Assembly: GCA_965644265.1 (NCBI GenBank)
Contig: OZ286468.1
Location: 46,190,001-46,254,000, forward strand
Length of the DNA: 64,000 nt
DNA from: Glycera tridactyla
Taxonomy: Eukaryota
Direction: 5' to 3'
Position numbers and translations under genes: made by a program. Below are positions 40,501 to 44,080 of this stretch, piece by piece (position 1 is the stretch's first letter; each line of letters begins with the position of its first letter). The notes under the pieces are model-generated. The model did not search any database. It had not been told where the DNA came from and saw nothing but the letters and a program-made list of their open reading frames with translations.

Positions 40501-43500
40501 GACGCTGTCTAAAGGGTCTTGCATCTGGGAGCAGCTTGATTTGATGTTGCACATGATTGACAGTTCTCATTTCGTGTGTTGTCATGGCAAAACAAGAACG
40601 GTTTTTATCAAGTAGTGAGGTCAACCTCTGTCTCTGTTCCACAGTTAAGTGTGCCAAAGACAGATTTTCATCCCACTTAATATCCTGGTACTCAATAGGT
40701 TCATGAGGGATCTCTTCTACCACTGCATGCTCCGTGAACACCCAATCATGATTCAATAGTGGTGAGATTGTTACGTCAGTTTGGGTAGCTATATTATTCT
40801 TACTACTCTGATATTCTGAGTTGTCTGAAATGATACCTGACATACTACTCTGATATTCTGGGTTGTCAGAAATGACATGTGACATACTACTCTGATATTC
40901 TGGGTTGTCTGAAATGACACCTGACACATATAGGGTCTCTGCACCAGTCTTAGAATTCTTTTTGACCAGATAAGTTTTCTTAACATTTTCTAAGACTAAA
41001 TCATTATTTTCCTCAGTTGGGAAAGCAATATCTTCAGGATGCTTCTGGTAACCATGCAACTTTCTGGATTTTTCTGGAAGGCCCGTGACTTCCATGATGT
41101 CTTCTGTGTCAAATGACTCACAGTATGCAATGATCTGATGTTTATCAATAAACATCATTTGATCCGAATTGTTAATAACAGTAACCAGTGAGACATTATC
41201 ATGAAAAATGGTACCTAAATCAAATTCTGCTGCCAATTCTGACTTGTGTCTGTATTGGGGTTTCACAAATATAGCTACAGACTGCCTTGTTTTACAATCC
41301 CCCTCAGTTTGAAGATACCATTTTTGATCAAATTTGTAATTTTTGATGGCTTCAAAAGAACCTGGAGGTGCTCGTACTGGTATTTGAGCAATGGTCCTTG
41401 GTCTTACATACATACTGTCAATGGGAGCCAAAGGAAATCTTTGTTGCCACTGATTGTTTTGACATAGCAATGCTGCTACAAGACCATTCTGCAAAATTAG
41501 TGTAGAATTACCAAAGTCTAATTTCGCATTGTTTTCTTTCAAAAATGGTATTCCCAGAAAGATAGATATCGGTAAATTTTCAATAACATGGCAAGAAATA
41601 AGTGTTGTGAAACCTTCAATTGTTATTTTGAACTGACAAATACCTATAGAGTGCATGGGTTGACCAGAAGCATTCTTTAAATTCAAAAATGAAGGTGGTT
41701 GAATATCTAAGTCTATCTGTGATTGTAAATCATTAAAGAGAGATTCAGAAATACAGTTAACAGAGGCACCTGTGTCAACCAAGGCTGTAAGTTGTTTACC
41801 ATAAATGTCAATGTGAATGGTATTTCCATTTATAGTTAACTCATCAGATACTGCAAAAACTGAGTCTTCATGGGTAGTTCTCATGTTAGTACTTGACTGA
41901 GGTTGATTTACAGAGTTTGCACTTTCAACTAAAATGGATTTTAAATGAGGCTTATCAAGCTTTGTTTGTTGAATTTCTGGATCTGACTGGATGTTCAAAG
42001 AGATAGGTGATACATTCAAAAATAACAGCAAAGACTCCCAAGTATCATTCAATACAAATAATAAAAAATTGTTAAAACTCACATCTGTTATCTGGATAGT
42101 TGTAGGTAAGAGTTCCTTTGGTGCACAATGCCATACTGGTGAAGGAGGTAGATGATCTGAATTGCTGCAGAGTTGTTCTCCCAGTGGGGACCATAAGGTA
42201 TCTTTTGATACAATCCAGTCTTGATGTGTAGCTACCCAGGAGTTGGCTGAGAATGAAGTATCTGTCTGAGTTGCATGGTCATATAGTGAATTGAAGGATG
42301 TGGGCTCAGGCTGATTACTGGCAGATGTCGCCACTGAGCTGACATTGAGTGAGCACGCATTTGGCAGGCTGTGTCGCTCTGAAGGTGTCAATGACACTTC
42401 AGCTACGGCAAACAGACATGCATCGAGTGAGCTCGCATCTGCTACACTGGACGGCTCAGAAGGTGCTAATGGTACTTGGGAGACGGGAAGACGATTTTCA
42501 TTGAGAGAGCCGGTATCTATTTTTCCATGTTGCTGTGAATCCGTCCATGACAATTTGGCGGCGGTAACGTGACTTTTATTCAGTGAAATAGCATCTGTCA
42601 TCATGTATTGTTCTATATGTTTTGAAGGCAATCTGTCGACGGCAATTCGACCTTCATTGAGAGAATTCGCATTTGACATCGTGTGAGCCTCTGAAGGCGT
42701 TAATGACAATTCCCCGGCGGCAATTCGATTTGCATCGAGTGAACTCGCATCTTTTAACTTGTTTTGCTCAGGAGGTGTCAATGACACCTTGGCGACGGTA
42801 GGCCGATCTTCATTGAGTAAGCCCGTATTTGTTAGTTGTGGCTCAGGAGGTGTTAATGACACCTCGGCATCAGTAAGCCGATCTTCATTAAGTGAGCCTA
42901 TATGTCTCACCCTGTGATCTTCTGAAGTCGTTAATGACGATTTGGCGGCGGTAGGCCGATTTTTAATGATTGAACTCGCGTCTGTCACCATGTGGGTCTT
43001 CGAATGCGTTAATGGCAATTTAGCGGCGGTGAATCGACTTCCATTGAGTGAACTCGCATCTGTCATTCTGTATTGTTCTATAGACGTTAATGACAATTCC
43101 GCGGCGCCAAGCCGACTAGCATTGGGTGAGCCCACATCTGCTACGCTGGGCTGCTTGGAAGGTGTTAATGACAATTTGGCGGGTATAAGGCGACTTTTGT
43201 TGAATGAGCTCGCAATTGTCATCATGTTAGCCTCAGAAGGCGTTAATGACAATTCGTTGGCGCCAAGCCGATTTTCATTGAGTGAACTCGCCTCTGTTAC
43301 ATTAGGCAGCTCAGAAGGTGTCAATGACACCTCGGTGGCGGCAAGCCAACCATTCTCAATTGAGCCCGCATCTGCCAGCCTGTGTGGCTCAGGAGGTGTT
43401 GATGACACCTGGGCGTTGGTAAGCCGACTTGCGCTGAGTGAGCTTGCGCTGAGTGAGCTCGCCTCTGTCATCTTGTGAGCCTCCGATGGCGTTAATGACG

Positions 43501-44011
43501 TTTTGACGGCGGTAATTTGAGTCGTATTGAGTGAGCCCACATCTATTCCTTTGTTTGTATGGGTAAATGGCCCTTCAGCGGCTGAAAACTTACTTTTATC
43601 AAGTGGGCCCCCATCGTTATTGTTTAATGAATACTTTCCTGGCCTTGTGCTTATTGTAGAGGAACTCTTACCTGGTTTCTTTACAAGTTCATCAGTAACT
43701 TCAAATTGGCATACATTCGTATTCTGCACAATACCCTCATCACAATGTATTTCAATACAATCATGAATACAACCTTTGCATTTTTCATCAAATCTATTAC
43801 TATCCACGGCACTTGTTGACATCTGTATACTATTACCTGAACCATCAACCTTAGAATCAGCAGTAATAGGAACATTTTGTAATACAAGTAAATCATCTTG
43901 CACACGTTTGAAATCATTTCCCATCACCGTTGTATTTACAGATGTATTGGTAGGTTTAGTTTGTGAATCATTTACAACAATATTCATATCATATACAGGG
44001 TTATCATACAC
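37502..44011 (-). CDS. pol: Pol polyprotein: long N-terminal extension, aspartic protease, RT, RNase H, integrase (the frame is open up to 44080)
   Basis: PR LVDTGAS; RT RPYRL, SCPVFLVRKK, DYRKLN, LPFGL, FLDD; RH TDAS..EKE..TD; IN HHCC (HDSLIGGH...CESC), D-D-E core (HLDC, TTDK, VERMN) and a GPF motif. Confidence 0.97.
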   Translation of the reverse strand: MYDNPVYDMNIVVNDSQTKPTNTSVNTTVMGNDFKRVQDDLLVLQNVPITADSKVDGSGNSIQMSTSAVDSNRFDEKCKGCIHDCIEIHCDEGIVQNTNVCQFEVTDELVKKPGKSSSTISTRPGKYSLNNNDGGPLDKSKFSAAEGPFTHTNKGIDVGSLNTTQITAVKTSLTPSEAHKMTEASSLSASSLSASRLTNAQVSSTPPEPHRLADAGSIENGWLAATEVSLTPSELPNVTEASSLNENRLGANELSLTPSEANMMTIASSFNKSRLIPAKLSLTPSKQPSVADVGSPNASRLGAAELSLTSIEQYRMTDASSLNGSRFTAAKLPLTHSKTHMVTDASSIIKNRPTAAKSSLTTSEDHRVRHIGSLNEDRLTDAEVSLTPPEPQLTNTGLLNEDRPTVAKVSLTPPEQNKLKDASSLDANRIAAGELSLTPSEAHTMSNANSLNEGRIAVDRLPSKHIEQYMMTDAISLNKSHVTAAKLSWTDSQQHGKIDTGSLNENRLPVSQVPLAPSEPSSVADASSLDACLFAVAEVSLTPSERHSLPNACSLNVSSVATSASNQPEPTSFNSLYDHATQTDTSFSANSWVATHQDWIVSKDTLWSPLGEQLCSNSDHLPPSPVWHCAPKELLPTTIQITDVSFNNFLLFVLNDTWESLLLFLNVSPISLNIQSDPEIQQTKLDKPHLKSILVESANSVNQPQSSTNMRTTHEDSVFAVSDELTINGNTIHIDIYGKQLTALVDTGASVNCISESLFNDLQSQIDLDIQPPSFLNLKNASGQPMHSIGICQFKITIEGFTTLISCHVIENLPISIFLGIPFLKENNAKLDFGNSTLILQNGLVAALLCQNNQWQQRFPLAPIDSMYVRPRTIAQIPVRAPPGSFEAIKNYKFDQKWYLQTEGDCKTRQSVAIFVKPQYRHKSELAAEFDLGTIFHDNVSLVTVINNSDQMMFIDKHQIIAYCESFDTEDIMEVTGLPEKSRKLHGYQKHPEDIAFPTEENNDLVLENVKKTYLVKKNSKTGAETLYVSGVISDNPEYQSSMSHVISDNPEYQSSMSGIISDNSEYQSSKNNIATQTDVTISPLLNHDWVFTEHAVVEEIPHEPIEYQDIKWDENLSLAHLTVEQRQRLTSLLDKNRSCFAMTTHEMRTVNHVQHQIKLLPDARPFRQRPYRLNLEGQKEMDRQIEQLLKDHIIEPSIENSWSCPVFLVRKKGITPNSPVKYRLVCDYRKLNAQTVPEFHPLPTFEQLADNLSESKPSIFSVMDLTQGYYQLTVHPNSRHLTTFNTGRGAYRWRKLPFGLSHAPHTFSRAMALALQALGDKPIWNFLDDLIVASKNFDSHLEDLQAVFTQLHLFGFTLNPKKCAFAKKEVAFLGFLVNENGIAPDPGKVRAMNEFPDPNNVGELRRALGLLNFYRRFIPLYSKRAAPLYKALKKGAKFEWTKEMEESLADLRRELLKNAVLAHPDMNKPFIVTTDASGDCISHTISQYDIKKVLRPIAFFSQTLSRSQSKWHINEKETFSLVMAFRKNRHLFGSSQIYCFTDNLTTRYVLQLKNSSNPKIVRWALELQRYPFEIVHKPGAQLKVADCLSRIKVPMPAESEVAHSLKQTTEDWDFDDNDNGIMGILEELFLEDSNDCVVKSSQDPWMENILKVIDVKVKNGVYLPDQVLAVDLAVTSSSQQPETSSTCHTGQSGLNIHSSQDNEDFVQEEDFTFQEQERLFETCMEHRYELKDEQLGDSHFGPILNYIYNSKLPKSKRKARAIMADIDNWTLDEEGLLRRIYKPNRSRNPRDVILQLALPERFRHDVVRQYHDSLIGGHQGAPKLVALLRERYFWPRMYSDIYQYVQSCESCQMAKRPTSYQKAPLQTRDIPPFMGRIHLDCLHLPKSTEGFTVCLVIVDAFSKAIELIPCVNETASTLARQFFRHWVCRYSTPLQITTDKHPSFMSQFMTELAKYLGMEKVAISTANPKANGQVERMNAQILNTIRSTIPTANRSWPDLLPAIRFAYMSAPSHSTQYSPFEVLHGVPPRYPQSYIWNNPASIPENTQKLMEQLLPELAIVRKSASDNLKKATEAHKKVYDRKIVSQMQEFEVGDLVLIKDYRQPGQGTDKFSLKAWGPFRITRKLGPVLYELMNTHTYEVLPSLRHFDQLRMYNPPNTARIRQLPREH
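42320..43498 (-). repeat. About 15 in-frame tandem copies of a 78-bp / 26-aa unit inside the pol frame
   Basis: Units such as SLTPSELPNVTEASSLNENRLGANEL and SLTPSEANMMTIASSFNKSRLIPAKL; one unit is 25 aa and one is 31 aa. Confidence 0.92.
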
Positions 44012-44080
44012 AGAATTCCAATTTTTATGTGATTTTTCGTCAACTGTTGTTTGCCCATTCGAGAGATGAGTTGTGTGTTC

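Follow-up and report, generated by a model that had tools for sequence, protein, structure and literature searches.

Element architecture

The window, which is the whole 64,000-nucleotide stretch of DNA analyzed, contains a young Gypsy LTR retrotransposon, and the repeat stretch described below lies in the front of its Pol. The 5′ and 3′ LTRs are identical except for one 5-nt indel, and a 4-nt target duplication (CTTG) is present at 35257-35260 and 45852-45855. LTR ends of the form TG...CA with a target duplication, and the domain order gag, protease (PR), reverse transcriptase (RT), RNase H, then integrase (IN), place the element in Ty3/Gypsy. The features are:

45362..45851, minus strand: 5′ LTR (TGTCA...TGACA), near-identical to the 3′ LTR
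45345..45357, minus strand: stretch resembling a primer-binding site (TGG...), immediately internal to the 5′ LTR, from the sequence
44081..45334, minus strand: gag, 417 aa, with zinc knuckles and a TAG end (ORF and Pfam)
44054..44073, minus strand: conserved post-TAG motif, likely a readthrough signal (TAG and motif in 39/39 elements)
43499..44080, minus strand: pre-array spacer, aa 1-194, in which partial units accompany a patch rich in Cys at aa 101-113 (pN/pS 0.70, computed on 11 copies)
42316..43498, minus strand: array built of 15 26-aa (78-nt) units and predicted to be disordered (repeat analysis, AF2)
42260..42283, minus strand: site 1, a TQT motif free of proline, with its Q at pol aa 605, a candidate for LC8 binding
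41840..42259, minus strand: post-array block with clade-wide partial conservation (W-x7-[FL]WSP-x-G; pN/pS about 0.5)
41500..41840, minus strand: aspartic protease (PF13975, E 1e-7; pLDDT 81-94)
40775..40798, minus strand: site 2, another xQT-D motif, with its Q at pol aa 1100, in the PR-RT interval, likewise a candidate for LC8 binding
37502..40500, minus strand: RT, RNase H and integrase (Pfam domain matches)
37104..37511, minus strand: integrase tail with a chromodomain-like end (weak chromo matches, E 0.011-1.5)
35261..35745, minus strand: 3′ LTR (comparison with the 5′ LTR)

The Pol ORF (37502-44080, minus strand, 2192 aa) is in the same frame as gag and directly follows the gag TAG (44081-44083). 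The zf-CCHC match in Gag (E 6.5e-4) is just under the cut-off. In sister copies the primer-binding-site-like stretch reads TGGTGGAG and the integrase tail is in frame with pol; in the window copy the tail is out of frame, with the break near 37505-37515. No env ORF follows pol, as there is no minus-strand ORF >109 aa between 35746 and 37100, and the element does not fit an Errantivirus-like, env-bearing Gypsy. In a quick tree, which leaves out L036, L039, L049 and L029, the lineage groups with just two outside proteins as a clade on a long branch.

The repeat array

The layout reported in the first-pass annotation was confirmed. It had counted about 770 codons from the gag stop to the catalytic DTG (41768-41776), and there are 768 between the TAG and the catalytic Asp (pol aa 769, 41776). 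Its 15 repeats of 26 aa at about 43498-42320 have starts at aa 195 to 563 (43498 to 42394), and the partial copy upstream corresponds to partial units at aa ~150-194, found by reading the sequence. Unit spacings are 31, 26 (seven times), 25 and 26 (five times), with the array end near 42316. Identity is 0.30 at lag 26 and 0.29 at lag 52, with values of at most 0.13 at other lags (55 lags tested), and TRF gives a period of 78 over the array. Mean identity between the 13 regular units is 62% at the nucleotide level and 38% at the amino acid level.

A Cys/His cluster had also been noted upstream of the array, where the window copy has CKGCIHDCIEIHC at pol aa 101-113. The cluster is not conserved as such, and neither His residue of CKGCIHDCIEIHC is present in any of 12 sister copies; the C-x2-C-x3-C-x4-C spacing is kept in 8/13 copies. 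A zinc finger at aa 101-113 was rejected because the ligand set is not conserved (His in the window copy only).

AF2 predicted no fold for the array (pLDDT 48.8, pTM 0.12, without secondary structure, from only 37 related rows). The array contains 1.8% aromatics and 32% S/T/P. The repeat is not a domain; a known repeat domain or solenoid should have a predicted fold and core residues under purifying selection, and the array shows neither. We conclude that the array is likely a disordered linker of near-neutral sequence.

The description of the repeat as unrecognized stands, as searches of Pfam, PDB and atlas families returned no described domain. The best ESM atlas match (0.80) is at lead level only, and no homologues of pol aa 190-590 were found among long proteins, which is weak evidence. 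A profile of 37 three-unit segments had 12 matches among 1.84 billion proteins. Pfam scans of all 12 found no retroelement, and the five examined individually are low-complexity repeats with no relation to this one. Profiles of the units, of site 1 and of the PR-RT spacer had no match in PDB, and a dUTPase-like reading of that spacer gained no support. Within the genome, all 47 matches to the repeat fall within 16 loci of this Gypsy family, so no host donor is seen.

Selection on the array

The inference of an old, frame-preserving array was supported, as was selection for its translation: only the pol frame has been cleared of stops. In answer to the suggestion that other copies be checked, the arrays of near-complete copies are stop-free in 13/13 cases. 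Each has 0 stops in the pol frame, whereas four of the five remaining frames contain 11-59. The antisense frame is closed in every array (1-9 stops). Among 115 distinct units, nonsense neighbors were observed in 0/18 cases vs. 201/265 for missense neighbors (p 5e-11). These data bear on the idea that the stretch is untranslated, in which case Pol would be made from a message that is spliced or has an internal start, and the array would be a coding minisatellite open by coincidence. This is very improbable, given that stop purging is confined to the pol frame, that length variants of the array are all whole codons, that there is no conserved ATG (the first Met after TAG varies from aa 11 to 125), and that the frame is lost in decayed copies L033-L035, whose arrays are not stop-free.

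Within the preserved frame the amino acids are not conserved. The recommended dN/dS comparison gave a pN/pS between units of 0.94 (9045 unit pairs, not independent of one another), compared with 0.03-0.04 in RT/RNase H. Synonymous neighbors were observed in 67/95 cases, vs. the 201/265 for missense (p 0.34, distinct units), and variability among units is 0.37 at 0-fold and 0.31 at 4-fold sites. The repeat itself resembles a neutral linker, which weakens the claim initially made for it. Neither a sequence-specific scaffold, nor phospho-regulation of an S/T-P-rich array, nor a host-interaction domain formed by the repeat is supported, given the pN/pS, 0-fold sites that vary as much as 4-fold sites, the lack of an AF2 fold, the range of 7-18+ units and the unrelated repeats that sister lineages carry at the same place. 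A host-interaction role is more likely in the xQT motif just past the array, which the first-pass annotation did not mention.

Some observations count against a freely varying linker. Several 4-fold sites in the units are 94-99% conserved, which exceeds what pure neutrality demands and weakens this reading, and no near-complete copy has <7 units. A pN/pS near 1 could also be an average of purifying and positive selection. In a rival reading the repeats are themselves functional, as phospho-sites or host-binding units, and diversifying selection favors variety among copies in an arms race against the host. Consistent with this, there are 10 S/T-P dipeptides in the 394 aa of the array, S4, L5, T6 and S18 are kept in about 80% of units, unit position 22 is variable at codon positions 1-2 with position 3 99% fixed, and there are deep alleles throughout the 5′ half (gag CA, protease classes). 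We consider this rival unlikely, however, as missense changes are not in excess over synonymous ones, sister lineages have unrelated repeats or none, and where unit residues are conserved the third codon positions are conserved too, the pattern that shared descent gives.

Somewhat less likely again is that the array acts as RNA or DNA (a packaging or dimerization element, recombination hot spot or small-RNA decoy), with the open frame a by-product. The 4-fold sites being no more variable than 0-fold sites and the short palindromes in some units would fit such a role, but single-unit RNA folds (mean z -0.42, n=115) resemble RT and IN windows, scores of six 3-unit windows against synonymous shuffles scatter from -2.0 to +2.3, and the top covarying columns are not complementary. 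Adenine-specific, DGR-like variation was ruled out, since conserved A columns are common.

Recombination between copies and sister lineages

Twelve sister copies are 99-100% identical in RT, and each has a different array (7-18+ units). Units with a ≥95% twin are common between copies (44/165) and rare within their own copy (2/165), and we therefore infer that arrays are shuffled by recombination. The distance matrices computed for six regions do not correlate with one another (Spearman -0.14 to 0.21), and LTR pairs in 11 sister copies have 0-5 differing sites. Gag CA is 13-29% apart (nt) in most copy pairs, beside RT-RNase H at 1-5%, and the proteases fall into two classes 25-33% apart. Each young copy is a different mosaic, and the family offers a clear-cut example in nature for the study of recombination, and possibly of balancing selection, in transposons. 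It is quite probable that the units derive from an old tandem duplication and are now exchanged out of register between co-packaged RNAs; reshuffling between copies would likely occur through template switching in reverse transcription.

At the same place sister lineages carry unrelated repeats with periods of 34, 28, 9/18 and 15, and some lineages have none. When the 26-aa repeat was tested for homology to the 34-aa one in one element, the result was no better than the shuffled control (26 vs. 26). The distance from gag stop to protease ranges from 170 to 850 aa across the family. HIV-1 p6* is a retroviral transframe/spacer peptide of low constraint between Gag and protease in Gag-Pol; the window spacer is about ten times longer, repeat-built and hypervariable between copies.

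The Gag-Pol junction

A single in-frame stop with conserved context, as in readthrough-type Gag-Pol, occurs in 39/39 elements examined (RT 69-100% identical, L056 left out). The fixed motif starts about 8 nt past the TAG; within it TCGA never varies and a Ser codon is fixed. It is likely a readthrough signal; short, new and conserved over deep divergence, it would be a testable trait of the lineage. A 5-bp stem after the UAG is 91% paired with 1 compensatory pair, which is not above shuffles, and no covariation support was found for it. A distal RNA partner was rejected because the 8-10 nt matches are at scattered places, at chance level. Contigs from one sequencing run that was guessed to be RNA but may be DNA span the junction after gag and the stretch from array to protease; no joint in them is credible, and they carry no weight here.

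Fission yeast Tj1, and Tosmo1-3 and Tcry1, likewise have gag, stop and pol in a single frame and a conserved context around the stop, as far as the available part of bioRxiv 2022.12.06.519325 describes them. Relative to those Tj1-type elements, the window family has UAG rather than UGA, a conserved motif 8-27 nt downstream of the stop, repeat arrays and xQT motifs. The Tf2 protease begins about 4 aa after Gag, much closer than here, and a figure legend in the same source indicates mosaic diversity among related elements, as in Tf1/Tf2. The junction also resembles Moloney MLV Gag-Pol (UAG, short spacer, then a conserved element) in the portion of PMC5009743 available, but no pseudoknot is shown in the window family, which is a Gypsy without env rather than a retrovirus.

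We think it probable that the stretch is the front of Pol, likely made by readthrough of the gag UAG, and that the array is a likely disordered, reshuffled linker. Occasional readthrough would, very probably, yield a minority Gag-spacer-Pol. The array would do no more than hold protease and Gag shell apart as a tether, with 7-20 units tolerated, a role that we consider reasonably likely.

Candidate LC8-binding motifs

Two proline-free xQT motifs flank the protease and are kept across the clade. They fit the rules for LC8 binding of TQT anchors in the part of PMC6607443 available: an x-Q-T anchor, a polar residue at -4, no Pro at -5 to -1 and D/E/P at +2. At both sites Q is invariant (CAA/CAG) and T is encoded by several codons. 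Pro occurs at -5 to -1 in 0/71 sites, and position +2 is D in 32/35 cases at site 2 and D/E/P in 19/36 at site 1. A [TICV]QT would arise by chance in the site-1 interval with a probability of 2.5-5% per lineage; site-1 positions were chosen by pattern, and a separate alignment recovers Q independently. Site 1 has a pLDDT of about 40, and the host genome encodes a canonical LC8. LC8/DYNLL clients with TQT anchors, in the available parts of PMC6607443 and PMC3078936, share with the candidates the xQT, the polar -4, D at +2 and the lack of upstream Pro, and, at site 1, possibly a location in a disordered region. Foamy virus Gag, unlike these candidates, binds LC8 via a coiled coil, according to the available part of PMC3705263.

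We lean slightly towards the view that LC8 would bind the conserved motifs. Against this, K/R at -3 is nearly absent (1/71 sites), and many TQT peptides fail to bind LC8 (PMC6607443, available part). The site-1 anchors of the deep lineages L053 and L054 are poor, and site 2 may be structural because it begins a longer conserved block. Both motifs occur in 0/79 control proteins with PR and RT (of 105), a weak control because most of these proteins begin too near the protease.

Host LC8 dimers would bind the motifs on either side of the protease, pairing two Gag-Pol chains, and this would help the protease dimerize or link the particle to dynein. That LC8 aids dimerization is doubtful. If true, the retrotransposon would exploit a host dimerization hub, either setting the moment of protease activation or travelling on dynein. 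The paired motifs would represent a link to a host factor that is absent from the literature searched, where we likewise found no report of LC8 motifs in a retrotransposon Pol. We suggest, tentatively and at somewhat less than even likelihood, that a whole animal Gypsy lineage may combine readthrough Gag-Pol, an LC8-clamped protease, a disordered recombining tether that spawns repeats, a 5′-half allele pool and a near-fixed RT-integrase. In the outside relatives P0121 and P0122, site 1 is absent and site 2 is kept.

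The element and its repeat array

The minus strand of the window carries a Gypsy LTR retrotransposon; the host genome assembly spans 2.04 Gb in 207 contigs. The element has CTTG on both flanks and encodes a 417-aa gag ending in TAG, followed in the same frame by a 2192-aa ORF for protease, RT, RNase H and integrase.

Features of the window element
45362-45851 and 35261-35745 (-): LTRs, the same except for one 5-nt indel
42316-43498 (-): array of 15 units of 26 aa (78 nt)
37104-37511 (-): integrase tail, frame lost in the window copy, in frame with integrase in 11 near-complete sisters
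35251-35260 and 45852-45861: insertion flanks that look palindromic, as they do at most sister copies (L021-L032)

The frame break in the integrase tail could reflect a lesion or an error of assembly. A chromodomain-like end of this tail occurs throughout the clade, with weak matches only. Repeats of 53 nt lie in the 3' untranslated part (36090-36223). Insertion sites of most copies look palindromic (TG or similar, the 4-nt duplication, then (G)CA), suggesting a target-site preference of the family.

The first-pass annotation had described a pre-protease extension of about 745 aa with about 15 copies of an unrecognised 26-aa repeat. This array is real: the catalytic Asp is aa 769 of Pol, the 15 units start between aa 195 and 563, and lags of 26 and 52 are the sole periodic signals in the stretch. 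Identity between units is 62% for DNA and 38% for protein. The repeat indeed corresponds to no described domain, as a Pfam scan of the stretch gave no match and ESM atlas, profile and PDB searches found no relative. It is confined genome-wide to 16 loci of the window's family. A Cys/His cluster, also proposed previously, is present in the window copy, where alone the His residues occur; the Cys spacing is found in 8 of 13 copies.

Copies of the family and shuffling

A DNA search of the genome recovered 15 more loci with the repeat region, their RT 99-100% identical where present. The array is stop-free in 13 of the 16 loci (window counted), with 7-18 detected units and 520-847 aa ahead of the protease; the deleted or decayed L033-L035 have lost the frame. 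In 11 sisters, the two LTRs show 0-5 differences over about 490 sites, thus the arrays belong to recently active elements. Near-complete copies have at least 7 units. Two copies, L029 and L034 (G000:C13:92.23-92.25 Mb), are adjoining in tandem and each internally deleted.

Of 165 units, 44 share at least 95% identity with a unit in another copy, frequently at a different rank, and 2 do so with a unit in their own copy. Units 5-8 of the window copy have their match in L022 and L025, the ninth detected unit in L023 and L026. Among 11 copies, six regions (gag CA, gag NC, post-array block, protease, spacer and RT) give distances that do not correlate with one another (Spearman -0.14 to 0.21). Copies are 13-29% apart in gag CA, two pairs excepted, and 1-5% apart in RT-RNase H, and the protease forms two classes 25-33% apart. 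The shuffling is probably caused by template switching between RNAs packaged together, a process established for LTR elements.

Selection on the array

Among 115 distinct units, none of the 18 single-step nonsense neighbours of common codons was seen, compared with 201/265 missense and 67/95 synonymous neighbours. Stops are purged from the array and amino-acid changes are tolerated; that the array is untranslated seems very improbable. Pairwise pN/pS is 0.94 between units, 0.24 in protease and 0.03-0.04 in RT and RNase H. Diversifying selection on the repeats appears unlikely. Certain 4-fold sites in the units are fixed at 94-99%, which, with the minimum of 7 units, counts against a purely neutral array. 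Neither an RNA-fold signal nor complementary covariation was found in the units, and we consider a nucleic-acid function quite unlikely.

Aromatic residues make up 1.8% of the array, and an AF2 model of three units (37 rows) lacks structure (pLDDT 48.8). The suggestion that the repeat is a sequence-specific domain gets no support from this result, from the pN/pS between units or from the presence of other repeats in relatives.

Relatives

We identified 23 further elements with RT 69-93% identical to the window family; in a quick tree, these form a long-branch clade with that family and two outside proteins. Their pre-protease stretch spans 172-600 aa. Some lack repeats, and others have periods of 33-34, 28 or 9/18 (15 in P0122, an outside protein). 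The place is repeat-prone, and the 26-aa unit is a single family's instance.

A sister lineage (RT 86-88%) has a third ORF after pol, of about 300-330 codons, with signal-peptide-like and transmembrane-like stretches and a conserved C-terminal part. Judged by eye, it may be a short membrane protein similar to env; it is absent from the window's family.

Third ORF of the sister lineage
L036:8048-9031 (+)
L037 8223-9128 (sense)
L038 8439-9395 (sense)
L039: also present

Probable readthrough and candidate LC8 motifs

All 39 elements examined keep the TAG and a motif 8-27 nt 3' of it, in which a TCG Ser codon is fixed, and the first Met of Pol wanders between aa 11 and 125. This context points to programmed readthrough, as known from MLV (PMC5009743, in part) and fission-yeast Tj1 and Tosmo (bioRxiv 2022.12.06.519325, in part). 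A 5-bp stem 3' of the TAG is possible, with support not exceeding shuffles.

Two xQT motifs border the protease. Site 1, between array and protease, precedes the catalytic Asp by 134-173 aa (Q invariant in 22/22 rows; good anchors in 34/36). Site 2, between protease and RT, lies 257-344 aa past it, in 35/35 elements plus the outside relatives P0121 and P0122. Codons at both vary synonymously, and Pro is absent from positions -5 to -1 (0/71 sites). These candidate motifs fit the LC8-binding rules in sections of PMC6607443, which also report that numerous TQT peptides do not bind LC8. The host genome encodes canonical LC8; one contig holds two coding stretches for LC8 (dynein light chain) without introns (L060:1489-1758 and L061).

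Most likely, ribosomes would read through the UAG at a low rate, yielding Gag-spacer-Pol. The array would be a disordered tether without a strict length, its frame maintained while its sequence can drift and be exchanged between copies, and short motifs at the array edges would carry the function. An LC8 dimer holds two client chains together, and the proteases of retroelements are active as dimers. If bound at sites 1 and 2, LC8 would therefore be positioned to bring Gag-Pol chains together around the protease, or to connect particles with dynein.

Between protease and RT, some copies carry a coding repeat of 3 x 14 aa directly before site 2 (window 40801-40926), replaced in others. A conserved domain of about 150 aa (window 41040-41500; 47-93% identity over the clade) has no match in Pfam or PDB.

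Gypsy elements, readthrough and families of mosaic copies are all known already. The literature searched (mostly open papers, main texts) on pre-protease repeat arrays in Gypsy, readthrough in animal Gypsy, mosaic gag under selection and LC8 motifs in retrotransposon proteins (including the accessible part of PMC3705263 on foamy virus) holds no description of this lineage's traits. Readthrough is not mentioned in the accessible part of PMC13524379. Clades are listed in the accessible part of PMC8556966, and the family may already be catalogued in Repbase, Dfam or GyDB.

Other features in the window

An identical direct-repeat pair (1171-1470 and 8844-9143, 7673 nt apart) is probably a second young LTR element. 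Also present are a minisatellite of 33 nt that contains an open frame of 147 aa (46422-46865), a 43-nt minisatellite (52844-53369) and a tandem duplication of 215 nt (50467-50898).
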